Made by a program: the position numbers and the translations under genes | Part shown: positions 2,300 through 57,741 of the stretch, piece by piece | Numbering within the stretch: the first letter of the stretch is position 1 | Layout of the letters: each line of letters opens with the position of its first letter | NCBI GenBank assembly: GCA_018401705.1 | Contig: JAGYKL010000004.1 | Coordinates: 37,810 to 101,809, forward strand | Source of the DNA: Bacteroidia bacterium | Lineage (GTDB): Bacteria > Bacteroidota > Bacteroidia > M30B66 | DNA length: 64,000 bases | Direction of reading: 5' to 3' | The notes under the pieces: generated by a model | Seen by the model: only the letters and a program-made list of their open reading frames with translations | What the model was told of the DNA's origin: nothing | Database searches by the model: none

Positions 2300-3745
2300 C
2301 TAATCTTCGTTCTCAGATATAGATGATTGTAAAATGTTCTTAGCCGTCAAACCCATAACTTCAGCTTCAGCTATCATATATTGATACGCCGCCTCAAAAG
2401 AATTAGGAATCTGACCATCTAATATTGCTTCTCTTATTGCAGTTTTCAAAACTCCAATCTCCTTCCCTGGTTTTATATCAAAAGTAGCCATGATATCCAT
2501 TCCTGTTACAGGTGGTTGCCAGTTTCTTAATCTGTCTTTTTCTTCAAGTTCAACAAGTTTTTGGCGAACTAATTCAAAGTTAGCTAAATACTTGTTCACC
2601 TTCTCCTGATTCTTTGAAGTTATGTCTGCTTCGCATAAAGTCATTAAATCATCCACGTCATCTCCTGCTTCAAATAATAATCTGCGTACAGCAGAATCAG
2701 TAACTATTTCTTTGCTTAAAACAATTGGCCTCAAATGAAGCATAACCAATTTCTGGACATACTTCATTTTATCATTCAGAGGTAATTTAAGCTTCTTAAA
2801 TATTCCGGGTACCATCTTGGCTCCTCTATCTTCATGACCATGAAATGTCCAGCCATGATTCTCCTCAAATCGTCTAGTTACAGGCTTTGCAATATCATGC
2901 AATATAGCTGCCCAACGCAACCAAAGAGAATCAGTGTTTTCACAAATATTATCCAACACCTGCAAGGTGTGATAAAAATTATCTTTATGTGCTTTCCCTT
3001 TAATCACTTTAATCCCTTGTAATGCAACCATCTCAGGAAAAAACTGTTGAAGTAAGCCTGTGTCGAACAAATGTTTAAACCCAACCGATGGCTTTGGCGA
3101 AAGAATAATCTTATTCAATTCATCTGTGATTCTTTCCATTGAAACAATCTTGAGTCTCTCCGCATTGCGCTTCATCGACTCTAATGAGCTTCTATCAATC
3201 TGAAAATTTAACTGTGATGCGAATCGTATCGCCCGCATCATCCTTAATGGGTCATCACTGTATGTTTTATCAGGGTCAAGCGGCGTTCTGATGATTTTCT
3301 TTTCTAAATCAGAAATTCCTCCAAATGGGTCAATAACTTCCCCCGTTAAGGGGAATAGCTGAATTGCCATTGCGTTTATAGTGAAATCTCTTCTTTCCTG
3401 ATCCTCCTCTAAGCTTCCATCTTCAACAATTGGCTTTCTAGAATCTAAACGGTACGACTCTTTTCGAGCCCCAACAAACTCAAGTTCCCAATCACTTGTG
3501 TGAATCATTGCAGTGCCAAAGTTCTTGAAAATGTGAACTTTAACATCTTTTCCAATTGCACTTGCAATTGCCTTTGCGAAATCTATTCCACTGCCTTCTA
3601 CTACAATATCAATGTCTTTTTTAGAACCTCGGTTAAGCAGCTGATCACGCACATAGCCTCCTATAACAAAAGCATTAATGCCTTTGGCGGAAGCTGTTTT
3701 TGAAAGCAGTTCGAAAATTGGATCTGTGAGATTTAGTGTTGCCAC
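2300..3745 (-). CDS. cca: CCA-adding tRNA nucleotidyltransferase / poly(A) polymerase family with HD domain
   Basis: Class-II nucleotidyltransferase head motif [11 protein letters not shown] and DIDIVV. An HD motif (ILHDIAKP) lies downstream. Length 481 aa. Confidence 0.8.
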
Positions 3746-21590: not shown

Positions 21591-24500
21591 TTGAAGAATC
21601 TCGTTATGCTAAAAAGTTACTTTGCTCTATTGTTTGTTTTCATTAGCGTTACTCTTTTGTCGCAAGAGTCTCTCCAACCTCCTACCGCCCAAAAAAGACC
21701 TGTTTGTGATACAATTCATGGAGATATAAGATGTGATGAATATCAATGGATGCGTCAAAAGAATTCTCCTGAAGTAATAAATCACTTATATGCCGAAAAT
21801 GGGTATGCCGAGAGGTACATGAAGCAACATAGTCTTTTAATTAAGAAGATTTATGAAGAAGTTAAAGGAAAGATTGTTGAAGATATTCAGTCAGAACCAT
21901 CAAGGTCAAAAAAGCACCTTTATTATACTCGCTACGAAAAAGGAAAAGAGTATCCAAAATATTTCAGAAAAGCTGATACTCTCAATGCTCCAGAAATATT
22001 ACTCTTAGACATAGATTCTTTGGCAAAGAATTTTGCGAATTTCAACTTAAGCTCTTTGAGCATTAGTCCATCAAATGAAAGATTACTTTATGGTATTGAT
22101 ACCAAAGGCGACAGGCTGATGGATGTTTACTTCAAAGCGATTAATAGTGAAGAAATTTATCAAGACACCATTAAGCAAATCACAGGTATTTGCTGGTTTG
22201 GAAACGATGAGGTGATTTATACCATTCCTGAAAAAGACAGTAAAAGATCATTTAAAGCCTATAAACACAAGCTTAATACTCCTAAATCGGAGGATATTCT
22301 TATAGCATTCGAACAAGACCCGGTTTTTCAATTAAGCTTTTCAAGATCGAGCTCTGAGCGTTTTGTTTTTATGGGATCTACAAGCACTCTCAGCAGTGAG
22401 TTTAGCTTTTTCGATTTTGAGAATCCAGGCAAAGGCTTTCAGCTAATTGAACCGAGAAAACCAAACCATGTTTATTCTCCATCCCATATTGATGGTGAAA
22501 GTTTTATTGTAAATACTGATTTTGAAGCACCTAACGGAAAGCTAATGTTGGCTCCTGTTAATAACCCTTCTCAATCAAATTGGCAACAATTTCTTCCTCA
22601 TCGAGATGATGTTCTTTTGTCTGATTATGCAATTTATGGCGATTATTTAATTGTGGTTGAGCAATTTGATGCAAGAGAAAGATTAGTGAAAATTAATAGA
22701 AAGAACGGCCAACGAGATACAATAGAACTTCCTCTCGAACCTTCTTCTGTAGGTCTGTCATCCTATTATGAGCATGATGAAGGAAAATTTAGGTATAGTT
22801 TTACATCAATGAAACATCCAGGTGAAACCTGGGAAGTCGATTTAACTTCAGGTGAGAGGAAATTTATTCATCGAGATACAATTAACGGTAATTATAACCC
22901 AGCTGACTACGTTAGTGAAAGGATATATGCTATTTCGAAGGATGGAGAGTCGATTCCGCTAACACTCTTGTATAAGAAGGGGCTTAAAAAAGATGGTGCA
23001 AATCCATTGTGGATTAATGCTTACGGTTCATATGGAAACTCTTCTTTACCAGGTTTCTCTATCTCAAGCATTAGCTTAGCCGACCGTGGTTTTGTTGTTG
23101 CAACAGCTCATGTTAGAGGAGGGAGTGATTGTGGTAGGTATTGGTATGACAACGGGAAACTCTTAAAGAAGAAGAATACCTTTTACGATTTAATAGCTTG
23201 TGCAGAAAAGCTCATTAGCGATAATTATTCTAAAGCAGATAAAATAGTTGTTTCGGGTGGAAGTGCAGGTGGTTTATTAGTGGGAGCTGTTATGAATATG
23301 CGTCCTGATTTATTTGGTGCTGCAATCGCAAATGTGCCTTTTGTTGATGTGATCAACACAATGCTAGATTCATCATTGCCTTTAACTACTTTCGAATATG
23401 ATGAGTGGGGAAATCCTAATGATTCAGTTTATTACCATTACATCAAGTCTTATGCGCCTTACGAGAATGTAAAGGCTATGAACTATCCACCAATTCTTGC
23501 TACAGCAGGATATAATGATTCTCAAGTGCCTTATTGGGAGCCAGCTAAATGGGTTTCCAGACTTAGGTCTTTAAAAACAGATTCAAATGTTGTCTTATTT
23601 AAAACTAATATGGATGCAGGTCATGGTGGAAGCTCAGGTAGATATGGGCGACTAAAGGATATGGCCTTCGATTATGCTTTTGCCTTTCAGGCGATAGGTT
23701 TAGAAGAAAATTACATAGTTATTAATGGTACTACAAAAGATTCTGAAGCTAATATCTTACCTTTTGTAAACGTTTATATTGAAGGCACAACACAAGCAAC
23801 TGCAAGTAATGAAAACGGAAGGTTTTCCTTGGAAATAAAAAAAGGAGATAAGTTAAATATTGTATTTTCTTCGATTGGTTTTAAGAAGGTAGTAATTCCG
23901 ATTACAATAAATACACCTCTTGATAATTTAGATGTTCTTCTTCAAGCCGAGAATTACCAGATAAAGACATTTGAAGTGCGAGCAGATGCAAAAGATCCAG
24001 CTTATGCTGTGATGAAAAAAGCTATAGAAAAAAGGAAGTTTCATTTAGAACAAGTTGATTCATATTCATCTGATATTTATATTAAAGGCGCTGTAAGATT
24101 GGATAAGATTCCTGAGAAACTACCTTTCTTTATTTCTAAATCACAAATGCCTGATTCAAGTGATTTGGGCTTGGTTTATTTATCCGAATCGGTGGCACGG
24201 TATCATGAAAAAAAGCCTGATTTAGTTAAGGAAGAAATGATGGCATCGAAAGTGGCTGGACTTAAACAAGGTTTTAGCTGGAATCGAGTTTCCGATGTAT
24301 TGATGAATTTTTACAAAAACCTTGTAGATATAGCATACTATTCTGACAGAGGTTTTGTATCTCCAGTTTCAGAATCAGCAATGTTCTATTACAAGTACAA
24401 AATGATTGGCACTTTCGTTGAAAATGGTCTGACAATCAATCGTATTTCTATTGAACCGCGCCGAAAGTTTGATCCATGCTTTCGTGGGGAAATTTTCATA

Positions 24501-26141
24501 GTTGATGATTTGTGGAATATCCACAGCCTCGATTTGCAATTGACAAAAGATGCTCAAATTGAGTTTGTTGATACTCTCTTTATTAGACAAGAGTATGTTG
24601 CTGTTGAAGATAATATTTGGATGCCATTAACTCTTCAGCTAATGAGTCACATTAGCGTTTTTGGCTTTTCTGCAACCGATAAGTCTATTGGCGTTTTTTC
24701 CAACTATAAAATTAATCCCCCTTATGATAAGAGGTTCTTTGGAAACGAAATTTTTAAAATCGAAGAAAAAGCAAATCAAAAAGACACTGTTTTCTGGGAA
24801 GATACAAGACCTGTGACCTTAACCGAGGAGGAGATTGAGAATTATCGAAAGGCCGATAGTACTGAACAGGTTCAGTCTTCTAAACCTTATCTTGACTCAC
24901 TTGACAGAGTAACGAATAAAATAGGCATAGGAGATGTCCTTTTTGGCGGAATTGATTTTTCGAATTCATTTGAAAAGAAGTTCTGGCGAGTAAGTCCACT
25001 AATTACCATGGCATCCTTTAATGTTGTGGAGGGTTTATATCTCAATCCTGAATTAGTTCGAAGAATTAATCCCGAAAACAATGAAATATCCATTTTTAAA
25101 GCTTCAGTTCGTTATGGGTTTTCTGACTTTAGATACAAACCTTCAGCATCATATTTCAAGTTAACAAATCCTTCAAATTTTAATTGGTGGTATATTAAAG
25201 GAGGAAGAATGATGTCCCAAATAAATGGTGATGATCCTATTCAGCCAATAGTTAATGCAGGATACACGCTGCTTGATAAGCGCAATTTGATTAGATTATA
25301 TGAGAAAACGGGTCTGGAAATCATTTGGAACAAAGAGCTATTTAATGGGCTAATGTTTCAGGGCGCTGCTTCTTGGTTTCAACGTATAATTCCAAATAAT
25401 AAAAGCGATTTTTCTTTCAGTGATAAGAATGATGCTTATTCCTTAAATAGAGATATAGTTGATCTAAATGATAAAATTGATAATTATGAAAGCACGTATG
25501 CCGGAGTAAACATAAAGATGAGCTACCGCATTAAACAGAAATATGAAACGCGTGGAAACAGGAAAATAATTAGAGGTTCAAAATGGCCTTTACTTACTGT
25601 TGAGTATGAACAAGCGTTAAGTGGAATTGCTGGAAGCGATGTGAAATTCTCTCGAATGGAGTTCGCGGTTTCCGATCGTTTAGATCTTGGTTTATTAGGT
25701 AATTTCAGTTACAAAGTAATTGGAGGTACTTTTCTAGATAATTCTAATATGACCTTTATTGATTACCGACATTTTAATGGGAATGAGACTTTCTTTTTGC
25801 GCAATTTTGGTTCTGAAACACCTTATAATATTTTCAGAAATGGATTAAATAGATTCAATGCTTTGCCATATTATTCTTCAAGTACTAATGGGGCTTTCGC
25901 CCAGTTTCATATTGAGCAAGACTTTAGTAACTGGCTAACAAATAAAATCCCACTGCTCAGATTAGCAAGGTTGCAAACTCTAATTGGCTCAAATATTCTT
26001 TGGAGAGAGTCTCAAGATATTTACACTGAATTTTATCTTGGAATTAACAACATTCTTAAAGCATTCAGAATAGATTTTGTGAGTCAATACACCCCTGGCA
26101 AGGCAATAAAGCCTTTAGTAAGAATCGGAATAGACTTTTAA
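21591..26141 (+). CDS. fusion protein: S9A prolyl-oligopeptidase/oligopeptidase-B-like peptidase (aa 1-~700) fused in frame to a CarbopepD_reg + DUF5686-like module (aa ~705-1516)
   Basis: Signal peptide. The S9 nucleophile elbow GGSAGGLLVGAV and the C-terminal MDAGHGG...AFDYAFAFQAIGL are as in PtrB. With no stop, the reading frame continues into NYIVINGTTKD...LPFVNVYIEGTT, a carboxypeptidase-regulatory-like start, and then about 800 aa of a DUF5686-type protein. Confidence 0.7.
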   Translation: MKNLVMLKSYFALLFVFISVTLLSQESLQPPTAQKRPVCDTIHGDIRCDEYQWMRQKNSPEVINHLYAENGYAERYMKQHSLLIKKIYEEVKGKIVEDIQSEPSRSKKHLYYTRYEKGKEYPKYFRKADTLNAPEILLLDIDSLAKNFANFNLSSLSISPSNERLLYGIDTKGDRLMDVYFKAINSEEIYQDTIKQITGICWFGNDEVIYTIPEKDSKRSFKAYKHKLNTPKSEDILIAFEQDPVFQLSFSRSSSERFVFMGSTSTLSSEFSFFDFENPGKGFQLIEPRKPNHVYSPSHIDGESFIVNTDFEAPNGKLMLAPVNNPSQSNWQQFLPHRDDVLLSDYAIYGDYLIVVEQFDARERLVKINRKNGQRDTIELPLEPSSVGLSSYYEHDEGKFRYSFTSMKHPGETWEVDLTSGERKFIHRDTINGNYNPADYVSERIYAISKDGESIPLTLLYKKGLKKDGANPLWINAYGSYGNSSLPGFSISSISLADRGFVVATAHVRGGSDCGRYWYDNGKLLKKKNTFYDLIACAEKLISDNYSKADKIVVSGGSAGGLLVGAVMNMRPDLFGAAIANVPFVDVINTMLDSSLPLTTFEYDEWGNPNDSVYYHYIKSYAPYENVKAMNYPPILATAGYNDSQVPYWEPAKWVSRLRSLKTDSNVVLFKTNMDAGHGGSSGRYGRLKDMAFDYAFAFQAIGLEENYIVINGTTKDSEANILPFVNVYIEGTTQATASNENGRFSLEIKKGDKLNIVFSSIGFKKVVIPITINTPLDNLDVLLQAENYQIKTFEVRADAKDPAYAVMKKAIEKRKFHLEQVDSYSSDIYIKGAVRLDKIPEKLPFFISKSQMPDSSDLGLVYLSESVARYHEKKPDLVKEEMMASKVAGLKQGFSWNRVSDVLMNFYKNLVDIAYYSDRGFVSPVSESAMFYYKYKMIGTFVENGLTINRISIEPRRKFDPCFRGEIFIVDDLWNIHSLDLQLTKDAQIEFVDTLFIRQEYVAVEDNIWMPLTLQLMSHISVFGFSATDKSIGVFSNYKINPPYDKRFFGNEIFKIEEKANQKDTVFWEDTRPVTLTEEEIENYRKADSTEQVQSSKPYLDSLDRVTNKIGIGDVLFGGIDFSNSFEKKFWRVSPLITMASFNVVEGLYLNPELVRRINPENNEISIFKASVRYGFSDFRYKPSASYFKLTNPSNFNWWYIKGGRMMSQINGDDPIQPIVNAGYTLLDKRNLIRLYEKTGLEIIWNKELFNGLMFQGAASWFQRIIPNNKSDFSFSDKNDAYSLNRDIVDLNDKIDNYESTYAGVNIKMSYRIKQKYETRGNRKIIRGSKWPLLTVEYEQALSGIAGSDVKFSRMEFAVSDRLDLGLLGNFSYKVIGGTFLDNSNMTFIDYRHFNGNETFFLRNFGSETPYNIFRNGLNRFNALPYYSSSTNGAFAQFHIEQDFSNWLTNKIPLLRLARLQTLIGSNILWRESQDIYTEFYLGINNILKAFRIDFVSQYTPGKAIKPLVRIGIDF

Positions 26142-46792: not shown

Positions 46793-47314
46793 ATGAAACA
46801 GTGCTTACGAAATCAGCTTCTAATGGCAGTATGCCTTCTGCTGATTCCTTTGTCAGGCTTCTCACAGAAGTCTAATCAACAAAGTGAAACCCCTGCTCCT
46901 TATCCTAAATTGATTGCAACTGGGAATCCAGAAGCGGATAAAATCAATCATGAGAAAGCCGTTCAAGCTTGGAAGCAACAAGAAAAAGAAAGAGTAGAAC
47001 GTGTTCAGCTTGAAAAAGGGAGTACAAATGTTTCTTCGAAAGCAGTGCAACGTGAAAAGGGAAATCTTAGCACTAAGAATGCAGGAACTTCCCGATCTTC
47101 AAAAACAAAATCCAGAGAGATTCAAATAATTGATCTTCCTGGTTTCCCTAAATATATAATTACGGGCGACACAAATGCAGATGAGAAAAATTATCAAGCT
47201 GCAAAATCTAAGTGGGTGGATGAGAATCCGCAACTTTATAAAGAGTATGTTCAGAAACATTCTGCTAACTCAAATAAGAAGTTGAACAGGAGAAAACCTG
47301 ATACTTCAAATTAA
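46793..47314 (+). CDS. small secreted protein with internally duplicated motif
   Basis: Signal peptide. Two copies of [FY]PKxIxTG[ND]xxAD[KE]xN[HY][EQ][KA]A..[AK]W about 90 aa apart. 21 bp upstream of the giant gene. Confidence 0.4.
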   Translation: MKQCLRNQLLMAVCLLLIPLSGFSQKSNQQSETPAPYPKLIATGNPEADKINHEKAVQAWKQQEKERVERVQLEKGSTNVSSKAVQREKGNLSTKNAGTSRSSKTKSREIQIIDLPGFPKYIITGDTNADEKNYQAAKSKWVDENPQLYKEYVQKHSANSNKKLNRRKPDTSN

Positions 47315-47355
47315 TTTGAAGTATACATATATATATGTCTATAGAAAACTCGAAC

Positions 47356-50300
47356 ATGAAAAATATATACAAAAATTTAATCACGCTAACATTGCTCTTG
47401 TTGGGTTCAATCTCCTTGCAAGCTCAATGTCCATACAACAATAGTTTGTATGTATCAATTGGAGCTCCTTCAACTATTGGAGCTAGTGTAGGAGAAGAAT
47501 GTATTTTCCCAGGAGAATATATTCGTGTTACTGGAATGCAAGCAGGTAGTACTTACCGAATTTCAACATGTAATTCAACTGATGTTGCAGATACTCGTGT
47601 AACAGTTTATGCACAAGGCGGCGCCGGCGGTGCTTTAACATTCAATGATGATTTCTGTGGTCTACTTTCAAGAGTTGATTTTACTCCAACTTCTGATGGT
47701 GGATACGATATTCTAGTTGATCAGACTGGTCCAGGCAATACTTGCGAAAGTGGTACTGAATGCGTAGATCTTTCAATAACATTAATTGGGACTTCCGGTT
47801 CTACAGATTATTGTATTCCTACATACACTTTTGGAACTGCTAATGGAGACTTCATTAATGGAGTTAATCTCGAATCTATTGACAATCAAAATTCAGGTTC
47901 TGTTGGAGGACCAGCTTATAGTGACTTCACTAATTTAAGTACTAATTTAAGCAGCTCGACTTCTTACACCTTATCTGTAAGGAACAATCCTGATTACACT
48001 GAAATTGTTTCTGCTTGGATTGATTACAATCAAGATTTTCAATTTTCAGAAGATGAGCGATTAGGTCAAGTTACTATTTCAGCTAATCAAACTGGACTAA
48101 TTAACTTTACAACACCTGCCAATGTATTGCCTGGAGAAACCCGATTAAGAGTAAGAATGGTATTTTCTGTTCCTACCTCAGGTGGTTTAGTATCTGCATG
48201 TGGTTCATCAAGTGTTGGTGAGACTGAAGATTACAGTGTTAACTTTTCTTCAAATAACCCTCCGCCACCGCCGGGAGCTTTATCGTTCCAGACTTCATGT
48301 GGTTTAGGTTTGGCTATTCAAGATAATGCTTGTCCTAATTATACTCTTGCAACAGTAGAAGTTGGCGGATTAACTAGTCTTGGTTCTAATCATATATTAA
48401 GTTCTGCTGAGATTATCGTTTCTCATGCAATGGCCGCTGATTTAGATATTTATTTGGAAGGCCCTGATGGAACAATTGTAGAATTGTCTACCGATAATGG
48501 TGGTGCTGGAGCTGATTATGGAATTTACACTATTTCAGATTGTTCACAAACAGCACTTTTTTCAATGGGTGCTTCAACACCAATTGCTGGAAGTTTAGCT
48601 CCTTTTGTAGGAAGCTACATTCCTGAAGGTGATTTGAATGATTTCAATCAAGGCACAAATCCTAACGGTTTCTGGAGATTAAGAGTTTGTGATGATTTTT
48701 CCGGGGATGCTGGAGTTATTCAATACGTTAAATTGAATTTCGAATTAAATGCTACAGAACCTCCAGCTTGTGCTGAAAACTTTAACGTTACTGATGGGGC
48801 AGGTAATATAGCTTTAGATCAACAACTTTCTTGGTCAGCTGGTGCAGGAAACCCTACTGCTTATGATGTGTTTTTTGGAACAGATGAGAATAATCTTACG
48901 CTAGTATCAGAGAATCAGACAGAAACAACATATAACCCGGGAGCACTAGATCCTGCTACTAATTATTTTTACCAAATTGTTCCTTCAAATAATGCGGGAG
49001 CAGCAGTAGGATGCGCGGTTATTTCTTTTACTACTGTAGCCGATGACGTTACTACTATTTTAATGAGTAATGGTCAATCAACAACCTGTAATGCTAATTT
49101 CTTTGATTCAGGGGGGCCAAATGGAAATACTGCATTAGGAGGTATAGAGCCTTTTGTATATACAATTTTCCCTGATGCTCCTAATTCAGCAGTTCAAGTT
49201 AACTTTTCTTCATTTGAACTAGGCGACTTCGATTTGTTTGGAATCGCTGATGGTGAAGATGGCAACGCAGAAGTTGTTTATTTTTATCCTATTAATAATC
49301 TTGATGCTCCAGGCACCATTACAGCAACAAATCCTAGTGGAGCTTTAACATTTGTTTTTCAAGCAGATCCATTTGTTACACAGCCAGGCTGGGCTGCTTC
49401 AATTACTTGTGTGCCTTTTGGTTCTGTTCCTAATTGCGTCGAAAGCTCAACTCCTGCTAACGGCAGTTTATCAGTTCCATTAAATACTCAACTAAATTGG
49501 GTTGCAGGTTCAGGAGAACCTACTGGTTATGATATATATTTTGGAACAGATGTTAATCCTCCACTTGTAGCTAGTGATGTTGCTGTTACTACTTTCAATC
49601 CTGGGGTTTTAATTAATGAAACAACTTATTACTACCAGATTGTTCCAACAAATGCATCTGGAGCAGCAACTGATTGTCCAATTAATTCTTTTGTTACAGA
49701 AGTAAGCGCTGGTAACGTGGTTTTAATTAGTGATGGTACTGCAAGTTTATGCGAGGGATTCTTTTATGATAGTGGAAACTCAAGTGGAGACTATTCTAGT
49801 GGAGAAGACTTTGAATTAACTATTACTCCTGATAGCCCTAACAGCGCTATTGAAGTTGAGTTCTCAAGCTTCAGTGTTGAAGAAGAATTTGATGTTCTGA
49901 CTGTATATTCAGGCACAGGAACTAGTGGTCTTGTACTTGGCACTTTAACAGGTAACGTTGTTACACCTCTTTCTTTTACTTCTGTTTCTCCCGATGGAGC
50001 TCTAACTTTTGTTTTTACATCTGATTTTCAAGTAACTAGCACTGGATGGCAAGCAACAATTTCTTGTGTTGAGCCATTGACTGCTCCAGGCTGTGTAACT
50101 CCAATTTCACCTTTAGATGGCGCTGTTGGAGTACCTGTTTCTGGTTCAATTGCTTCTTGGGCTCCAGGTGCTGGGGGAGATGTTTTGACCTACGACTTGT
50201 TTTTTGGTACAGATGAATTGAATTTATCACTTGTTTCTGATGACCAGGCTGAATCGGTATTTAACCTACCTGATTTAGAAAACAATACGATATATTATTG

Positions 50301-53300
50301 GTTAGTAGTTCCTAGTAACTTAGTTGGATCACCTTCTGACTGTCCAATATTTTCTTTCAGAACCGCTATTGCTATAGAAGTTCCAAGTTGTGCTGAAATT
50401 GTTTCACCTGCAGATGGGGCAACAGACATTCCTGTTTCAGGATCAGTTGCTTCATGGGCTGCAGCTGCAGGAGGAGATGCCCCAGATTCATATGACTTAT
50501 TCTTTGGAACTGATTCTGGAAATCTTACTCTTGTATCTGACAATCAGGTTGAAACTACTTTCAGCTTGCCTGATCTTGATTTTTCAACTGAATACTTTTG
50601 GCAAGTTGTTCCTTCTAATGAAGCAGGAGAAGCTGTTAATTGTCCGATTGTAAGTTTTACAACTGTTGCTGATGTTCAAGCTCCTGCTTGTGCAGAAATT
50701 GTTTCTCCAGCTGACGGAGCAATTGCTGTTCCTGTTTCTGGCTCATCTGCAGAATGGACAGCTGGTTTAGGAGATGCTCCTGATACGTATGATCTATACT
50801 TTGGAACGGACTCTGGAAACCTCACTCTTGTTTCTGATAATCAAACTGAAACAACTTTTAATCTTCCAACACTTGATTTTGCAACTGAGTATTTCTGGCA
50901 AGTTGTTCCTGCTAATTCTGCTGGTGAAGCAGTTGGTTGTCCAATTGTCAGCTTCACCACAGAAGAAGAGCCAATTGTTACTGATATTTTAATGCAAAAT
51001 GGTTCTTTGACTGTTTGTTCTGGTACTTTTACTGATGATGGAGGTGCAACTGCTAACTATTCAAATGATCAGAATTTAGTATTAACTCTAACACCGGAGA
51101 TTCCTGGAAATGTTCTACAGGTTAATTTCTCTTCTTTCGTACTTGAGGATAATTTTGAATTCCTGACTATATATGATGGTAACTCTGTTGCTGAACCACT
51201 AATTGGAACATTTACAGATGTTGACTCACCTGGAAGTATAGTTTCTTCGGCTGCAGATGGATCTCTAACATTTGAGTTTGTTTCTGATGCGAGTCTTAAT
51301 TTTGCTGGTTGGGTTGCTGAAGTTTCATGTATTGATCCTAATGCGGCACCTGAATGTGCTATTAACCTAAGTCCAGCTGACGGTCAAACTGAAGTTTCGG
51401 TTTTACCTTCACTTACATGGACAAATGGAGGAGGAGTTGTTGTTGGATATGATGTTTATTTTGGAACTGATCCTGAGAATTTAGTTCTTGTTTCAGCTTC
51501 ACAGGCCGAAACAACTTTTCTACCTGGAGATTTAGATTTAAATACAACATATTATTGGCAAATTGTCCCAGTAGGTGCTTCAGCATCTTCAGAAGGGTGT
51601 GCAGTGCTATCATTTGTAACAGAGGTTAATCCTTCTGTTTTAATGCAAGATGGTTCCATATCTATATGTTCGGCTAATTTCTTTGATGCAGGTGGAATAG
51701 ATGGTAATTACCCATTAGATGTTGATCAAACGTTAACTATTACACCAGATCAACCAGGGAATTTACTTCAAGTTACATTTACATCTTTTGAACTTGAAAA
51801 TACTTGGGATTTCTTAACAATTTTTGACGGTAATTCTACTGCTGCACCAATAATTGGTGCATTTACAGGAACTGCTCCTGGAGGAACTGTTCCAACTGGT
51901 CCAATTTTATCTACTGCAGCTGATGGAAGTCTAACATTCAATTTTACATCTGATGCATCAACAACTTTATCTGGTTGGTCTGCTATTGTTGAGTGTATTA
52001 ATCCGAATGCAGTTGCAGAATGTGCTCAGAACTTTGTACCAGCAGATGCTAGTACTGAAGTTTCTCCGGCAGCTCTTAATTTAACTTGGTCTCCAGGAGC
52101 TAGTATAGTTACTGGTTATGATGTTTATTTTGGAACAGATCCTGATAATTTGGTTCTGGTATCTGAAAATCAAATTGGATCTTCTTTTAGTCCAAGTGAT
52201 TTAGACCTTAACACAACTTATTACTGGCAGATTATTCCTATCAATGAGAATGGGGCAGCTGTAGATTGCATAGTTAATTCATTTACAACTTCTTCTGTAT
52301 TAGACATCGTTATGTCAAATACAACAGTTACAACTTGTGATGCTAATTTCTTTGATTCGGGAAATCTTGCTTTAAATTATGGTAATGATGAGGATTTAAC
52401 TTTAACAATCTTCCCTGATCAACCTGGTAATGCAGTTCAAGTAAACTTTAGTTCTTTCGATATTGAAGAGAATTTTGAATTCTTGACAATATTTGACGGT
52501 AATGATAATACTGCTCCTGTCATTGGAGTGTTTTCTGGAGATGTTGACGGTGGTATTATTCCTGTTGGGCCTATTACTTCAAGTGCAGCAGATGGTAGTT
52601 TGACGTTTAATTTCACATCTGATGTTTCATTGAACTTCGCCGGTTGGCAAGCATCAATATCATGCGTCTCTGCTGAAGAAGTTCCTGGTTGTATTACCAA
52701 TGCCTCGCCTTTAGATGCTGCAATTGATGTTGATGTAACAACAATACTTAATTGGAGTGCAGGTTCAGGTGTTACTTTAGGTTACGATGTTTTCTTTGGT
52801 ACTGATTCTGAGAATTTGGTTTTAGTATCAGATGATCAAACAGCTACATCTTTTGACCCGGGTCAATTGGAATTAAACACAACTTACTTCTGGCAAGTTG
52901 TCCCTTTTAATTCTAGTGGTTCTGCAGTTGATTGCCCAGTGTTAAGCTTCACAACAGCATCTGAGATTAACTTAGTTATGTTTAATGGTGAGGTCACACT
53001 ATGTGAAGGGAATTTATTTGATTCTGGAGGACCAGATGCTAACTATCAGAGTAATGAAGATTTTACATTAACTGTATTTCCATCAACTCCAGGAGCTCTA
53101 ATTCAAGCTGAATTCATTAGTTCAGCAATTGAGAATGGATTTGATAATTTAGATATTTACAGCGGAAGCAGCGTGACTGGGACTCCTGATTTAACATTAA
53201 CAGGAACCGTTCTTCCACCAGTTTTAGTTTCTTCTGCAGCAGATGGTAGCTTAACATTCAACTTTACATCTGATATTTCAGTTGCTCAAGCTGGCTTTGA

Positions 53301-56300
53301 AATTCTTTTAACATGTTTTATTCCTGTTGAAGCTCCAAGCTGTTCTGAGAATTATTTCCCTGCTGATCAAGAACCTGCCGCTCCTCTTAACACTGTTTTA
53401 AGTTGGTCAGGAGTTGGTTTCCCAACAGGCTATAACGTATTGTTTGGTACTGATCCAGATAATTTAGTTGAAGTTGCCTCAAGTATAGGAAATAACACTT
53501 TCAATCCGGGGCCTCTTGATCCTTTAACTACTTATTATTGGCAGATTGTACCTTTCAATGATCTTGGAAGTGCTGATGGATGTCCAGTGCTATCATTTAC
53601 AACTGCGGAATCTGCGGTAGTAAATATGTTTACTGGAGAGGTTAGTACTTGTTTTGCAGAGTTCTATGACCCTCAAGGTCCTGATGCCAATTACGAAAAC
53701 AATCAGTTTAACACCTTAACTGTATTCCCTGATGCTGCTGATAATGTTGTTAGAGTTACCTTCTCGTCTTTCGTTGTAGAGAATAATTTTGAGACTTTAA
53801 CAATTTTCTCTGGTGCAACAGCAACTGGAGCCCCAATTGCTACTTTAACTGGAACAATTGCAGGTCCGGTCTCATTTACTTCTTCCAGCACAGACGGTGC
53901 CTTGACATTTGTTTGGGAAAGTGATACTTCTGTTACAAATCCAGGTTGGGAAGCTGTTCTTGAATGTGTCTCTACGACTGAAATTCCAGGTTGTACAACC
54001 AATCCTGTTCCTGCTGATGGAGCATTAGATGTTAGTTCTACGTTAGCAACTCTTTCATGGGGATTGGGTAGTGGAATCGCATTTGGATACGATGTTTATT
54101 TTGGAACAGACCCTGATAATTTGGTGCTTGTTTCACCTGATCAGGTTGAAACAACCTTTAACCCAGGCCAACTTGATTTAAATACAACTTATTATTGGCA
54201 AGTTGTGCCTTCGAACGATGCTGGCGAAGCGACTGGTTGTCCTATCAATTCTTTTACTACAGGTGGTTCTATCGACATACTTATGTCTAATGCAACAGTG
54301 ACTACTTGCAGTGCAAACTTCTTTGACTCAGGTAACAATACTGGTAATTATCAGAATAATGAAGATTTTACTTTGACAATATTCCCTGATGCACCAGGTA
54401 ATTCAATACAAGTAACTTTTACTTCATTTAATATTGAGAATACTTGGGAGTTCCTTACTGTATTCGATGGTAACTCAACAGCTGCGCCTATTTTGAATAC
54501 CTTTACAGGTAATGCTGCTGCAGGAACTGGCAATACGCCAAATGCACCTATCACCTCTTCAGCTGCTGATGGAAGTTTAACATTTAACTTTACATCTGAT
54601 ACATCATTTAATTTTGATGGATGGGAAGCTGTTATCACATGTATTGATGCTACTCAAGTTCCTGCTTGTATCGCTTATACTCAAGGTCCAGCAGATGGGT
54701 CTACTGATATTTGTATTAACGAAGCTTTACTTGCATGGACACCTGGTGCAGGTGCTCCTCCAACAGCTTATGATGTGTATTTTGATTTTGGTGGTGGTTT
54801 AATTCTTGTTTCTGATGATCAAACAGAAGCAAGTTTCGACCCAGGTACATTAAGCCCTAATACTACATATTCATATCAGGTAGTTCCTTCTAATACAAAT
54901 GGAGAGGCTGTTGATTGTCCGGTTATCACATTCACTACTGGAACTTGTTTGAATTACTGTGATGCAGTAGCAACTAATTGTGATGAATTTATCGCAGACG
55001 TTCAAATGGGCAATATCAATAACCCATCAGATTGTACACCTGGTGGTTATAATGATTATACGGATCAATCTACTGATGTTTACATTGGAACGTCAACTGC
55101 GATTACAGTAGTTAATGGTTCACTTCAGTGGCCTCAGGATCTTCTTGGAATTTGGATTGACTGGAATCAAGATGGTACATTTGACGATGCAAATGAAACA
55201 ATTACTGTAAATGGCTCACCTGGCGTAGGTCCTTACACTGCTGATATTATTCCTCCAGTAGATGCTGTTCTTGGTTCAACTAGAATGAGAATACGAGTAA
55301 CATTCGGTGGCGTCTTAGATCCATGTGGAACTACTACTTTCGGTGAAGTTGAAGATTATACAATTATTGTTAATGAGGCATTAGCTTGTCCTTTCCCTAA
55401 TAATATTGTAAGTTCTGAGACAACTACATCATCTACAGTTATTACTTGGGATGAAGTTATAGACGCATTAGAATACCAAATCCGTTATCGTTTGGTATCT
55501 GAAGATGAAACAGCTGCAACCTGGACAACTCCGATTGTAGTGCCTGCTCCGTTAACATTCACTTTCTTAGAGAACCTAATTATTTGTGAGAATTACATTC
55601 TTCAGATTGGTTCTGTATGTGAAGAAGGGGCTACTGATATTGTTTTCTCTTCAAATGTTTCTTTCGGAACAAGATGTATTGATTGTTTACCAGAATACAC
55701 TTTAGAAGGTGAAGATTGTGGAACTGATGTTAATGGTGGGTGTAATTCAACTCCTAGTGCATTTGGTCAAATCAATTGTGGAGAAACTATTTGTGGAACA
55801 TCTTTCTTTGATGGAGCTACAAGAGATACAGATTGGTATAATTTCGATGTTGCTGAAGAAGGAGTATTCCAACTAAGCATTCTTGCAGAATTTGATGGTA
55901 CAATTCTATTTGCTGACGCTTCTGATTGTGCTAACATTACTGTACCTAGTCAGGCTAACTTCTCAGCTGGTCAGAACTTCACATTTGCAAGCACCTTAAC
56001 TCCTGGAACCTGGACAGTAATCATCCTGCCAATATTTGAGCAAGCTGTTTTTGATTGTTCAAGCTTTAACGGGTACACTTTAACATTATCTTCTGGCGAA
56101 ACGCAAATAGCACCTACTGGTGATGTATGTGAAACAACTGCTCCATTTAACTTGTTTGCAATTCCTGCGGGTGGAACTTGGAGTGGAGATGGTATAGCAG
56201 ATGCGGATAACGGAACATTTGATCCTTCTTCAGTTGGTGTTGGAAGTTATGTTGTAACATACACACCTGACGGAGCTGGATGTTCTGTTGCAGATTCAAT

Positions 56301-57741
56301 TACAATTGTAGTTGAGGAAGCTCCTGAAGCTGATTTCGTAGGACTAGCTGCAACTTATTGCCCAGGAGCTGATGATGTTGTTTTGACAGGAATTCCTGCT
56401 GGTGGAACATTCAGCATTGAACCATCTATTGAAGGTGCAATTGCTGGAAATATATTTATTCCAAGTGTTTGTGCACCTGGTACTTACGAAATTACTTATG
56501 TAGTTTCAGTAGGCTCTAGTTCTTGTGCAGGTTCAATAACTCAAACTGTTGAAATACTTGACAGTCCTGTAGCTACAATTGATGCACTTCCTGCAGCAAT
56601 TTGTACTCAGGATGATGTTATCACTCTTTCAGGAACACCTGTTGATGGAACATTTAGCGGAATGGGAGTTGTAGATAATACATTTAATCCTATGATGGCA
56701 GGAGCTGGACTCGTAACAATCACTTACACTGCATCAGTAGAAGGATTTGAGTGTCCTGCAGTAGTTAATGCTGACATTCAAGTTAATCCTTCTCCAATAG
56801 TATCAATTGGTGGAATCTCTGGGGATTATTGCTTAAACTCTAACTCTGTTGTTCTTCAAGGATTACCAGCTTTAGGAACATTCTTTATTGATGATGTTGA
56901 ATCAGCTGATGGAATATTTAATCCAGCAGATGCAGGTTTAGGAGCGCATACTATTCGTTATGAATTTGATAATGGCACTTGTGTAGGCTTCAGTGAGATA
57001 ACTGTAAATGTTATAGATAATCTCACATTAACGTTCGATGGAACTCCAACAGAGGTTTGTTCTGAAGATGATCCTTTCTTGATTCAAACTTCTCCTGCTG
57101 GAGCTACTTTGTCAGGTTTAGGAGTATTTGGAAGCACATTCAGTCCTAAAGTTGCAGGCCCTGGTTCACACATTATTACAGCTAATTACAGCAGTGGTAA
57201 TTGTTCAGTTACATCCACACATACTATTGTTGTAAATGCATCTCCAGCAGCCTCGTTCACATACAATGTCAACGGCGCAACAGTTTCATTCAATAACTCT
57301 TCTTTGAATGCAACAAGCTACACTTGGGACTTTGGTGATGGTGAAACAAGCACATCTGTTAATCCAACACATACTTATGCAACTAATGGTTCATATATAA
57401 TCACTCTAACGGCCTCAAACCCTGATTGTGGAAACTCAGTATTCACTGCTGAGCTTGAACTTTCTGTTGGAATTGGTAGTATTGATGGAGTGGATATGAT
57501 TCAACTGTATCCAAACCCTACTGGAGGAATGATTAACTTGGTTTTCAATTCATTAAACCAGCAATCATTTGAAGTTCGTATAACTGATGCTACTGGTAGA
57601 TTAATTCAGGTTGATGCTCTTACCAATTATGTTGGTAAATTCAACAAGCAATATGATCTTACTGATAAAGCAAAAGGTGTGTACTTCTTTAGTATAGCTT
57701 CAGATAAAGGTTCTATCAACTTTAGAGTTGTAAGAGACTGA
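47356..57741 (+). CDS. giant (~3460 aa) multidomain cell-surface protein, T9SS cargo (C-terminal sorting domain)
   Basis: Signal peptide. Two GEVED-type modules (GETEDYSVNF; GEVEDYTIIV). A proprotein-convertase P-domain-like region. 11 FN3-like and 8 CUB-like modules. Ig-like repeats. A PKD domain (WDFGDGETS). The terminal Por/T9SS C-terminal domain (YPNPTGG...GVYFFSI...). The start is set at the ATG at 47356 (MKNIYKNLITLTLLLL). Confidence 0.8.
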   Translation: MKNIYKNLITLTLLLLGSISLQAQCPYNNSLYVSIGAPSTIGASVGEECIFPGEYIRVTGMQAGSTYRISTCNSTDVADTRVTVYAQGGAGGALTFNDDFCGLLSRVDFTPTSDGGYDILVDQTGPGNTCESGTECVDLSITLIGTSGSTDYCIPTYTFGTANGDFINGVNLESIDNQNSGSVGGPAYSDFTNLSTNLSSSTSYTLSVRNNPDYTEIVSAWIDYNQDFQFSEDERLGQVTISANQTGLINFTTPANVLPGETRLRVRMVFSVPTSGGLVSACGSSSVGETEDYSVNFSSNNPPPPPGALSFQTSCGLGLAIQDNACPNYTLATVEVGGLTSLGSNHILSSAEIIVSHAMAADLDIYLEGPDGTIVELSTDNGGAGADYGIYTISDCSQTALFSMGASTPIAGSLAPFVGSYIPEGDLNDFNQGTNPNGFWRLRVCDDFSGDAGVIQYVKLNFELNATEPPACAENFNVTDGAGNIALDQQLSWSAGAGNPTAYDVFFGTDENNLTLVSENQTETTYNPGALDPATNYFYQIVPSNNAGAAVGCAVISFTTVADDVTTILMSNGQSTTCNANFFDSGGPNGNTALGGIEPFVYTIFPDAPNSAVQVNFSSFELGDFDLFGIADGEDGNAEVVYFYPINNLDAPGTITATNPSGALTFVFQADPFVTQPGWAASITCVPFGSVPNCVESSTPANGSLSVPLNTQLNWVAGSGEPTGYDIYFGTDVNPPLVASDVAVTTFNPGVLINETTYYYQIVPTNASGAATDCPINSFVTEVSAGNVVLISDGTASLCEGFFYDSGNSSGDYSSGEDFELTITPDSPNSAIEVEFSSFSVEEEFDVLTVYSGTGTSGLVLGTLTGNVVTPLSFTSVSPDGALTFVFTSDFQVTSTGWQATISCVEPLTAPGCVTPISPLDGAVGVPVSGSIASWAPGAGGDVLTYDLFFGTDELNLSLVSDDQAESVFNLPDLENNTIYYWLVVPSNLVGSPSDCPIFSFRTAIAIEVPSCAEIVSPADGATDIPVSGSVASWAAAAGGDAPDSYDLFFGTDSGNLTLVSDNQVETTFSLPDLDFSTEYFWQVVPSNEAGEAVNCPIVSFTTVADVQAPACAEIVSPADGAIAVPVSGSSAEWTAGLGDAPDTYDLYFGTDSGNLTLVSDNQTETTFNLPTLDFATEYFWQVVPANSAGEAVGCPIVSFTTEEEPIVTDILMQNGSLTVCSGTFTDDGGATANYSNDQNLVLTLTPEIPGNVLQVNFSSFVLEDNFEFLTIYDGNSVAEPLIGTFTDVDSPGSIVSSAADGSLTFEFVSDASLNFAGWVAEVSCIDPNAAPECAINLSPADGQTEVSVLPSLTWTNGGGVVVGYDVYFGTDPENLVLVSASQAETTFLPGDLDLNTTYYWQIVPVGASASSEGCAVLSFVTEVNPSVLMQDGSISICSANFFDAGGIDGNYPLDVDQTLTITPDQPGNLLQVTFTSFELENTWDFLTIFDGNSTAAPIIGAFTGTAPGGTVPTGPILSTAADGSLTFNFTSDASTTLSGWSAIVECINPNAVAECAQNFVPADASTEVSPAALNLTWSPGASIVTGYDVYFGTDPDNLVLVSENQIGSSFSPSDLDLNTTYYWQIIPINENGAAVDCIVNSFTTSSVLDIVMSNTTVTTCDANFFDSGNLALNYGNDEDLTLTIFPDQPGNAVQVNFSSFDIEENFEFLTIFDGNDNTAPVIGVFSGDVDGGIIPVGPITSSAADGSLTFNFTSDVSLNFAGWQASISCVSAEEVPGCITNASPLDAAIDVDVTTILNWSAGSGVTLGYDVFFGTDSENLVLVSDDQTATSFDPGQLELNTTYFWQVVPFNSSGSAVDCPVLSFTTASEINLVMFNGEVTLCEGNLFDSGGPDANYQSNEDFTLTVFPSTPGALIQAEFISSAIENGFDNLDIYSGSSVTGTPDLTLTGTVLPPVLVSSAADGSLTFNFTSDISVAQAGFEILLTCFIPVEAPSCSENYFPADQEPAAPLNTVLSWSGVGFPTGYNVLFGTDPDNLVEVASSIGNNTFNPGPLDPLTTYYWQIVPFNDLGSADGCPVLSFTTAESAVVNMFTGEVSTCFAEFYDPQGPDANYENNQFNTLTVFPDAADNVVRVTFSSFVVENNFETLTIFSGATATGAPIATLTGTIAGPVSFTSSSTDGALTFVWESDTSVTNPGWEAVLECVSTTEIPGCTTNPVPADGALDVSSTLATLSWGLGSGIAFGYDVYFGTDPDNLVLVSPDQVETTFNPGQLDLNTTYYWQVVPSNDAGEATGCPINSFTTGGSIDILMSNATVTTCSANFFDSGNNTGNYQNNEDFTLTIFPDAPGNSIQVTFTSFNIENTWEFLTVFDGNSTAAPILNTFTGNAAAGTGNTPNAPITSSAADGSLTFNFTSDTSFNFDGWEAVITCIDATQVPACIAYTQGPADGSTDICINEALLAWTPGAGAPPTAYDVYFDFGGGLILVSDDQTEASFDPGTLSPNTTYSYQVVPSNTNGEAVDCPVITFTTGTCLNYCDAVATNCDEFIADVQMGNINNPSDCTPGGYNDYTDQSTDVYIGTSTAITVVNGSLQWPQDLLGIWIDWNQDGTFDDANETITVNGSPGVGPYTADIIPPVDAVLGSTRMRIRVTFGGVLDPCGTTTFGEVEDYTIIVNEALACPFPNNIVSSETTTSSTVITWDEVIDALEYQIRYRLVSEDETAATWTTPIVVPAPLTFTFLENLIICENYILQIGSVCEEGATDIVFSSNVSFGTRCIDCLPEYTLEGEDCGTDVNGGCNSTPSAFGQINCGETICGTSFFDGATRDTDWYNFDVAEEGVFQLSILAEFDGTILFADASDCANITVPSQANFSAGQNFTFASTLTPGTWTVIILPIFEQAVFDCSSFNGYTLTLSSGETQIAPTGDVCETTAPFNLFAIPAGGTWSGDGIADADNGTFDPSSVGVGSYVVTYTPDGAGCSVADSITIVVEEAPEADFVGLAATYCPGADDVVLTGIPAGGTFSIEPSIEGAIAGNIFIPSVCAPGTYEITYVVSVGSSSCAGSITQTVEILDSPVATIDALPAAICTQDDVITLSGTPVDGTFSGMGVVDNTFNPMMAGAGLVTITYTASVEGFECPAVVNADIQVNPSPIVSIGGISGDYCLNSNSVVLQGLPALGTFFIDDVESADGIFNPADAGLGAHTIRYEFDNGTCVGFSEITVNVIDNLTLTFDGTPTEVCSEDDPFLIQTSPAGATLSGLGVFGSTFSPKVAGPGSHIITANYSSGNCSVTSTHTIVVNASPAASFTYNVNGATVSFNNSSLNATSYTWDFGDGETSTSVNPTHTYATNGSYIITLTASNPDCGNSVFTAELELSVGIGSIDGVDMIQLYPNPTGGMINLVFNSLNQQSFEVRITDATGRLIQVDALTNYVGKFNKQYDLTDKAKGVYFFSIASDKGSINFRVVRD
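48751..54945 (+). repeat. intragenic array of diverged ~280-bp FN3-like and ~330-bp CUB-like coding repeats
   Basis: Recurring ...YDVYFGTD..NL.LVS..Q.ETTF.P..LD.NTTYYWQVVP.N..G.A..CPV.SFTT (11 copies) alternate with ...C.ANFFDSGG..GNY.N.ED.TLTI.PD.PGN..QV.F.SF..E...DFLTIFDGNS.AAP.IG.F.G....I.S.A.DGSLTF.F.SD.S....GW.A...C (8 copies). Confidence 0.65.

Follow-up and report, generated by a model that had tools for sequence, protein, structure and literature searches.

What is an array of CUB domains, a domain usually described as an animal extracellular module, doing on a giant secreted protein of an uncultured bacterium? The question is raised by a 10.4-kb gene in a stretch of 64,000 nucleotides from a Bacteroidia bacterium (GTDB lineage Bacteria; Bacteroidota; Bacteroidia; M30B66; GenBank assembly GCA_018401705.1, contig JAGYKL010000004.1, positions 37,810 to 101,809 of the forward strand), hereafter the window, in whose coordinates all positions are given. 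We report that the roughly 110-residue modules of the encoded protein are genuine CUB domains as judged by sequence and modelled fold, and that the gene is no rarity but serves well to illustrate a large family already present in databases. A conserved acidic site in the modules suggests a Ca2+-dependent capture function, which is weighed below against several rival readings.

The gene is intact and real, as an earlier sequence-only reading of the window had described it (a single 10.4-kb gene encoding 3,461 aa from position 47356). An open reading frame (ORF) uninterrupted by stops occupies positions 47335 to 57741 of the + strand (3,468 codons). Two in-frame ATGs lie 21 nt apart within it, at 47335 and 47356; the public copy of the protein starts at the former (MSIENSNMKNIY...), while the latter (MKNIYKNL..., giving 47356..57741) provides a more canonical signal peptide, with n-, h- and c-regions. 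Read from 47356 the protein opens MKNIYKNLITLTLLLLGSISLQAQ|C, by inspection a classical signal peptide with K2 and K6, the hydrophobic stretch LITLTLLLLGSISL and then LQAQ|C. A repeat search found periods of approximately 660 and 300 nt, and since the DNA repeats are only 60-79% identical, their collapse or expansion during assembly is unlikely. Orthologous ORFs are likewise intact, at 3,491-3,782 aa, in four independent metagenome-assembled genomes (MAGs), which argues against a frameshift artefact.

Cutting the repeat region at its conserved cysteines yielded exactly eight CUB-like modules and 11 FN3-like ones; their order is FCFCFFFCFCFCFCFCFCF, they occupy aa 470-2530 (6.2 kb), and they agree with the module counts and core length reported from the sequence alone. 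On the whole protein, the Pfam CUB family (PF00431) scored 128.6 bits against a gathering cutoff of 21.4. Scanned module by module at E values up to 10, modules 2, 3, 4, 5 and 8 passed on their own at 25-30 bits, and the only non-CUB family to appear was a single weak DUF4453 match. A profile built from all eight modules and searched against all PDB sequences retrieved above noise only CUB proteins, among them cubilin (5e-19), neuropilin-2 (2e-13), neuropilin-1, PCPE-1, MASP-2, TSG-6 and enteropeptidase. Among solved structures, those of CUB domains fitted the modelled beta-sandwich more closely than other folds did. The CUB identity proposed earlier thus stands on Pfam, the PDB profile search and the modelled fold together. 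Another beta-sandwich family, or the lack of any CUB match, had been named as an outcome that should overturn it; both were looked for and neither was found, no MAM, lectin or other jelly-roll family scored for these modules, and these identities are ruled out by the same three lines of evidence. Pairwise identity among the eight CUB modules is 33-64%, and the interleaved FN3 modules have both a Pfam fn3 match and the FN3 fold. The modules are placed as follows.

48763..54945, + strand: repeat core, aa 470-2530, 8 CUB modules set among 11 FN3 modules; Lys absent, Arg twice
49087..49410, + strand: CUB module 1, aa 578-685, the most divergent, lacking Glu56 and Tyr27; no Pfam match of its own, a clear paralog
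49750..50067, + strand: CUB module 2, aa 799-904; Pfam CUB 25.1 bits
51016..51330, + strand: CUB module 3, aa 1221-1325; Pfam CUB 25.8 bits
51667..51996, + strand: CUB module 4, aa 1438-1547; Pfam CUB 30.0 bits
52336..52665, + strand: CUB module 5, aa 1661-1770, modelled jointly with FN3 module 7; passes the Pfam CUB cutoff alone
53002..53316, + strand: CUB module 6, aa 1883-1987; Pfam CUB 14.9 bits, sub-threshold, a paralog
53650..53967, + strand: CUB module 7, aa 2099-2204; Pfam CUB 19.2 bits, just below cutoff, a paralog
54307..54642, + strand: CUB module 8, aa 2318-2429; Pfam CUB 30.3 bits
Within the repeat core, + strand: FN3 modules 1-6, aa 470-565, 688-786, 907-1006, 1007-1107, 1108-1208 and 1328-1425
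Within the repeat core, + strand: FN3 modules 7-11, aa 1550-1648, 1773-1870, 1990-2086, 2207-2305 and 2432-2530

Each CUB module contains only two cysteines, at profile positions 13 and 119, and the metazoan four-cysteine (C1-C2, C3-C4) pattern is absent. Some complement CUB1 domains likewise lack one disulfide, and a missing four-cysteine pattern is therefore not disqualifying. The C-terminal cysteine had been counted toward the CUB assignment; it is not part of the metazoan pattern, and on present alignments the Cys13/Cys119 pair instead marks a bacterial subtype, in place of the animal C1-C2/C3-C4 arrangement. We infer that the two cysteines form a disulfide with each other.

The extent of this subtype was assessed by an exhaustive HMMER search of the eight-module profile against 1.84 billion cluster representatives. 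There were 11,587 matches at E<=1e-3 (the library carries no taxonomy, so that this figure is not a bacterial count), 6,596 at E<=1e-10 and 1,399 at E<=1e-30. Every one of the best 150 of these 11,587 had 3-34 matched stretches, mostly at 60-150 bits per module, compared with approximately 25 bits for animal CUBs. Low scorers among the best 150 were a handful (clusters P0108, P0151, P0100 and P0157), of which P0108 and P0151 proved, when their cysteines were checked, to have the animal arrangement (positions 33/58/79); the top of the list is overwhelmingly of the bacterial subtype. An iterated hidden Markov model detected a T9SS-type (type IX secretion system) C-terminal domain in 117 of the best 150, and a Pfam survey of 27 of them found CUB in 27/27, Por_Secre_tail in 18/27 and CHU_C in 2/27. 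Strict alternation of CUB with the FN3 subtype of the giant protein was a minority arrangement (~12/150). Conservation within the subtype, computed over 1,090 modules from the best 150 proteins, was as follows.

Cys13: 81%
Asp19, in a D-x-G-G motif: 94%
Tyr27: 94%
Asp60: 91%
Gly67: 97%
Gly112: 99%
Trp113: 81%
Cys119: 82%

Several individual family members are themselves of interest. The protein of P0009 extends to 6,578 aa with 34 CUB modules that carry extra cysteine pairs, and single members fuse M12B (reprolysin), M4, C10, S8 or M43 peptidases to CUB arrays, echoing the protease-CUB architectures of animals. WP_309942325.1, from the cultured Aureibacter tunicatorum (1,879 aa), consists of M43, nine CUBs, PKD and a C-terminal sorting domain (CTD), and NCBI already names several family proteins 'CUB domain-containing protein'.

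Two expectations of the sequence-only reading must consequently be revised. A CUB array on a T9SS scaffold had been considered unusual; the same subtype in fact occurs in thousands of clusters, mostly multi-copy and with T9SS tails, and is annotated as CUB by NCBI. The statement that CUB domains are rarely reported in bacteria is accurate for the literature and not for sequence databases. A 2023 review places the origin of CUB in early metazoans, in the eumetazoan ancestor (PMC9848320), and a 2021 genomics paper treats CUB as a 'eukaryotic-like' domain in prokaryotes (PMC7848895); our literature searches brought up neither a paper dealing with CUB arrays in bacteria or on T9SS cargo nor an experimental study of a family member. 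An apparent rarity in a word-indexed search, which returned only eight short metagenome fragments, was discarded as an effect of the index, given the 11,587 matches of the exhaustive search.

A scan with the entire protein across species-representative genomes turned up full-length relatives, at 45-78% identity, solely in MAGs of uncultured Bacteroidota that came from lakes and ponds; the closest is in the Bacteroidia MAG LejiaF_38_19. Of the 80 loci returned by that scan, most are without a CUB module and seem to owe their match to the GEVED region only. In at least five Bacteroidota MAG lineages the giant gene has an ortholog in synteny, encoding seven to nine CUBs in each, and the gene order Na+/H+ exchanger-TrkA, yidC, orf173, giant gene, adk, hpt, purK, purE, orf275, orf696 is kept in five lineages. 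Because the neighbourhood is preserved gene for gene, the gene is a settled resident passed on by vertical descent and does not belong to a mobile island. CUB modules 1, 2, 3 and 6 have positional orthologs at 52-60% identity, compared with 33-46% to their own paralogs, whereas modules 4, 5 and 8 are nearest to each other (54-64%), from which an old core with lineage-specific duplication or homogenisation can be deduced. The earlier description of the repeats as old and assembly-stable is thus partly borne out: it suits modules 1, 2, 3 and 6, and sits less well with modules 4, 5 and 8 and with a copy number that ranges from seven to nine. The best conserved part of the protein is its N-terminal 446 residues (58-84% identity among orthologs).

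The clue to function lies in a small set of residues shared with animal CUB domains. Profile positions Glu56, the aromatic at 59, Asp60 and Asp105 (followed by -x-Ser107) align with residues of the neuropilin a2 domain, and their counterparts in neuropilin-1 (Nrp1) a2, Glu195, Tyr208 and Asp250, belong to a Ca2+ site that grips a ligand lysine (PMC8155012). In the giant protein, the acidic triad E56, D/E60 and D105 is aligned in seven of the eight modules, as is Y27, and S107 in six; these are the residues of the Ca2+-binding CUB subclass. Asp209 of Nrp1-a2 we take to be the third Ca2+ ligand. Across six orthologs, the triad is present in 47 of 49 modules, as against 439 of 1,090 (40%) in the bacterial family at large. 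An incomplete triad evidently does not keep many bacterial CUBs from folding, so that the fold does not require the full set; that modules sharing only 35-60% identity have nonetheless retained the triad almost without exception speaks for selection acting on the site.

In the protein as a whole, Pfam supports two GEVED domains, P_proprotein, CUB, fn3, PKD and Por_Secre_tail, and together with the cysteine-based cutting of modules it bears out the domain order given in the sequence-only reading. The features outside the repeat core are listed below.

47356..47427, + strand: Sec signal peptide, aa 1-24, MKNIYKNLITLTLLLLGSISLQAQ|C, by inspection
47428..47805, + strand: N-terminal Cys-rich, PPC-like beta-sandwich, aa 25-150, the predicted distal tip
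47809..48255, + strand: GEVED domain 1, aa ~152-300 (Pfam stretch aa 218-296), 69.4 bits; model confidence there (predicted local distance difference test, pLDDT) ~90
48409..48741, + strand: proprotein-convertase P-domain without a catalytic domain, aa 352-462
55144..55365, + strand: GEVED domain 2 (Pfam stretch aa 2597-2670), 82.5 bits
55396..55632, + strand: lone FN3-like module after GEVED domain 2, aa 2681-2759; Pfam fn3 16.3 bits, E 0.012, weak
55825..56019, + strand: second PPC-like segment, aa 2824-2888; Pfam PPC E 0.053, sub-threshold
56128..57225, + strand: five Cys-bracketed repeats of ~68 aa each, putatively 'Ig-like', by eye, aa ~2925-3290
57253..57453, + strand: PKD domain, aa 3300-3366; PKD_4 59 bits, PKD 52 bits
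57505..57738, + strand: T9SS type-A CTD, aa 3384-3461; Por_Secre_tail and TIGR04183

The N-terminal head is assembled from beta-sandwiches that otherwise accompany proteases, namely PPC-like, GEVED and P-domain. The P-domain scored 29.5 bits as an isolated piece and 20.7 on the whole protein, just below cutoff; both PPC-like segments are sub-threshold, and the five ~68-aa repeats had no Pfam match at E<=0.1. Pfam found no Peptidase_S8 anywhere in the protein, which is thus not a subtilisin-like proprotein convertase, and no catalytic domain appeared in any scan or fold search of it, nor a catalytic fold in the model of the head. That model is of moderate quality (pLDDT 64.7); in a fold search its folds resembled collagen-binding/PPC domains of collagenase and accessory domains of endo-beta-GlcNAcase. 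At the opposite end, the sorting domain that had been called canonical scored 52.8 bits for Por_Secre_tail (PF18962; cutoff 27) and 38.3 bits for TIGR04183 (cutoff 23), which places it in type A. From the signal peptide and this type-A CTD, we infer export and display through T9SS.

The following mechanism can be proposed. The product would be a non-catalytic, modular cell-surface protein of an uncultured, Flavobacteriales-like lineage of Bacteroidota. After Sec export it would fold in the periplasm, each FN3 and each CUB probably being stapled there by its own conserved cysteine pair, and then cross the outer membrane through T9SS, where the CTD would be cut off and the new C-terminus attached (covalently) to the cell surface, as in other type-A cargo. 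Its approximately 30 beta-sandwich domains could form a filament of the order of 100 nm; because type-A cargo is attached via the C-terminus, that end would sit at the membrane, leaving the conserved head outermost. In the CUB modules, the triad and its flanking aromatic would hold Ca2+ and grip the ligand by the side chain of a Lys or Arg, as in animal Ca2+-binding CUBs. The retention of triad and aromatic in seven of eight CUBs, as at the animal Ca2+/Lys-Arg sites, leads us to propose a filament for Ca2+-dependent, multivalent, avidity-based capture or adhesion, with a protein or another cationic partner carried by particles, algae or other cells as its ligand, a reading to which we give even chances. 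The bolder claim, that CUB arrays of Bacteroidota are true functional counterparts of the animal Ca2+-binding CUBs, clamping Lys/Arg through the same Ca2+/acidic-triad site, and that the giant protein is a 'cubilin-like' multivalent capture receptor, seems to us rather unlikely.

Several observations weigh against capture by the CUBs. Position 60 is Glu and not Asp in half of the modules, the conserved Ca2+ site could be structural, stiffening the filament instead of clamping a ligand, and the neighbouring genes are housekeeping genes that offer no functional hint. The head is also better conserved than the CUBs, whose copy number varies from seven to nine, as would fit a spacer role for the core. 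This last point favours a division of labour between stalk and head, in which the FN3/CUB core would be a rigid, Ca2+-stiffened spacer, comparable with the repeats of RTX adhesins, and binding would reside in the PPC-like/GEVED/P-domain head. Ortholog identity (58-84% in the head, 35-60% in the CUB modules), the recently duplicated or homogenised appearance of modules 4, 5 and 8, and the likeness of the head folds to the binding accessories of collagenase and endo-beta-GlcNAcase are all consistent with it. However, a mere spacer would not readily account for surface-exposed ligand-site residues in 47 of 49 modules when the triad is not needed for the fold and only 40% of modules in the wider family have it, and the head model is only of moderate quality. 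We consider a passive stalk unlikely, yet the main rival and worth serious attention.

Other readings fare worse. Animal CUBs can serve proteases, as those of PCPE-1 present procollagen to BMP-1, and the giant protein might by analogy be a degenerate protease scaffold, released or surface-bound, which no longer has its catalytic domain and either recruits substrates for the T9SS peptidases of the cell or presents them. The protein has the protease-accessory head such a partner might be expected to carry; its lack of a catalytic domain, the absence of an adjoining protease gene and a resemblance to PCPE-1 at the level of fold only (22% identity) make this role quite improbable. A gliding-motility adhesin of the SprB/RemA type, moved over the surface by the gliding machinery, is suggested by the sheer size and repetitiveness of this T9SS cargo in Bacteroidota and by C-terminal Cys-bracketed repeats of similar style. 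Its CTD is nevertheless of type A (TIGR04183/Por_Secre_tail) and not of type B (CHU_C/TIGR04131) as in SprB, no PorP/SprF-like gene is adjacent (the neighbours being yidC, orf173, adk and hpt), and the Pfam scan found no SprB-repeat family, so that we regard gliding as very unlikely. Finally, the absence of the metazoan four-cysteine pattern, of a Pfam match for module 1 and of above-cutoff scores for modules 6 and 7 could be held to favour another beta-sandwich (MAM, lectin or jelly-roll), or an ORF created by misassembly or frameshift. Set beside the evidence for fold and gene integrity given above, this is effectively refuted. Capture by the CUB sites thus remains our preferred reading.

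Immediately upstream of the giant gene, by 20-40 nt and on the same strand, lies orf173.

46793..47314, + strand: orf173, small secreted protein with a signal peptide, a [YF]PK.I.TG..AD...W motif that occurs twice, and a linker rich in Lys and Ser

It has no Pfam family; its position is held in nine of nine related loci at 37-64% identity, and it could be co-transcribed with the giant gene. Elsewhere in the window, the ORF at 21591-26141 (+ strand, 1,516 aa, continuous) joins a complete S9 prolyl oligopeptidase (aa 30-703) to CarboxypepD_reg and a full-length DUF5686 (aa 711-1485), and is an unusual fusion or else two genes run together where a stop was missed.

The composition of the giant protein is extreme. 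It contains 407 Asp+Glu and 34 Lys+Arg (1.0% of 3,461 aa) for a net charge of approximately -373, against 11.6% Lys+Arg in other proteins of the window; nine of the 34 lie in the T9SS sorting domain, and the 2,061-aa repeat core has its two Arg and no Lys. Lys+Arg amounts to 0.7-1.3% in the orthologs. One candidate explanation, that Lys/Arg depletion guards against self-binding by Lys-clamping CUB sites, is weakened by related T9SS cargo that lacks CUBs and is also Lys-poor (Lys+Arg median 4.3%, Lys 0.4-1%). Such depletion thus seems to characterise the lineage or its secretome, of which the giant protein is the extreme case. The Bacteroidota O-glycosylation sequon D-[ST]-[AILVMT] is scarce as well, with one observed in the giant protein against 20.4±4.1 expected from shuffles, and 2 against 18, 7 against 24.5, 7 against 22 and 13 against 22 in orthologs; it is not depleted in the other ORFs of the window (32 against 20.5). 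This depletion may reflect avoidance of periplasmic glycosylation.

As a single gene the locus is unsurprising, given that giant modular T9SS proteins are routine and the domain is already labelled by annotation pipelines. The wider point is that a domain usually assigned to animals has, by our census, thousands of clusters of a bacterial subtype, mostly T9SS cargo. Into this family the giant gene offers a convenient entry point, being intact and syntenic, free of an enzyme domain that would confound binding assays, and almost perfectly conserved in its Ca2+-site residues. Ca2+-dependent capture, if true, would reveal what the members of a large family of surface proteins in Bacteroidota do, and would be relevant to the origin of the CUB domain. 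If the counterpart claim were also true, T9SS surface proteins and protease appendages, a very large family, would be either the source or the recipient of a ligand-recognition mechanism of animals. A Ca2+/Lys clamp at work in bacteria would make the gene more interesting.

How, then, does the protein compare with known systems? Its nearest counterparts are the proteins that NCBI names 'CUB domain-containing', for example WP_309942325.1, MEM7102619.1 (Bacteroidota bacterium, 3,123 aa) and MEZ5173375.1 (Bacteroidia bacterium, partial), which belong to its subtype (each module scoring 60-150 bits), carry the Cys13/Cys119 pair, have their CUBs in multi-copy arrays and in most cases end in a T9SS CTD. 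MEZ5173375.1 and clusters P0010, P0014, P0017 and P0023 also have its strict FN3-CUB alternation and are orthologs or close paralogs. In most family members, by contrast, the CUBs do not have this FN3 subtype between them, and several carry peptidase domains (M43, M12B, M4, C10, S8) that the giant protein lacks. The metazoan Ca2+-binding CUBs (cubilin, neuropilin a1/a2, PCPE-1, MASP/C1r/C1s and TSG-6) have cysteines at approximately 13, 33, 58 and 79, compared with 13 and 119 only in the giant protein, which differs further in its conserved D-x-G-G motif, in having FN3 and not EGF, CCP or LDLa as partner domain, in its bacterial host and T9SS export, and in a Ca2+ binding that is here predicted. 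With the type-A surface proteins and adhesins among T9SS cargo it shares a signal peptide, long beta-sandwich arrays (FN3, PKD, Ig-like) and Por_Secre_tail/TIGR04183; to our knowledge, neither a CUB array nor a GEVED/P-domain head is a feature of the characterised cargo (gingipains, SprB, RemA, ChiA). The Peptidase_M43 + GEVED + CTD metallopeptidases of Bacteroidota (P0190-P0205) differ from the giant protein in their length (~710 aa), their catalytic M43 and their lack of a CUB/FN3 array, and share with it a GEVED region at 40-45% identity, the T9SS tail and a Lys-poor composition.

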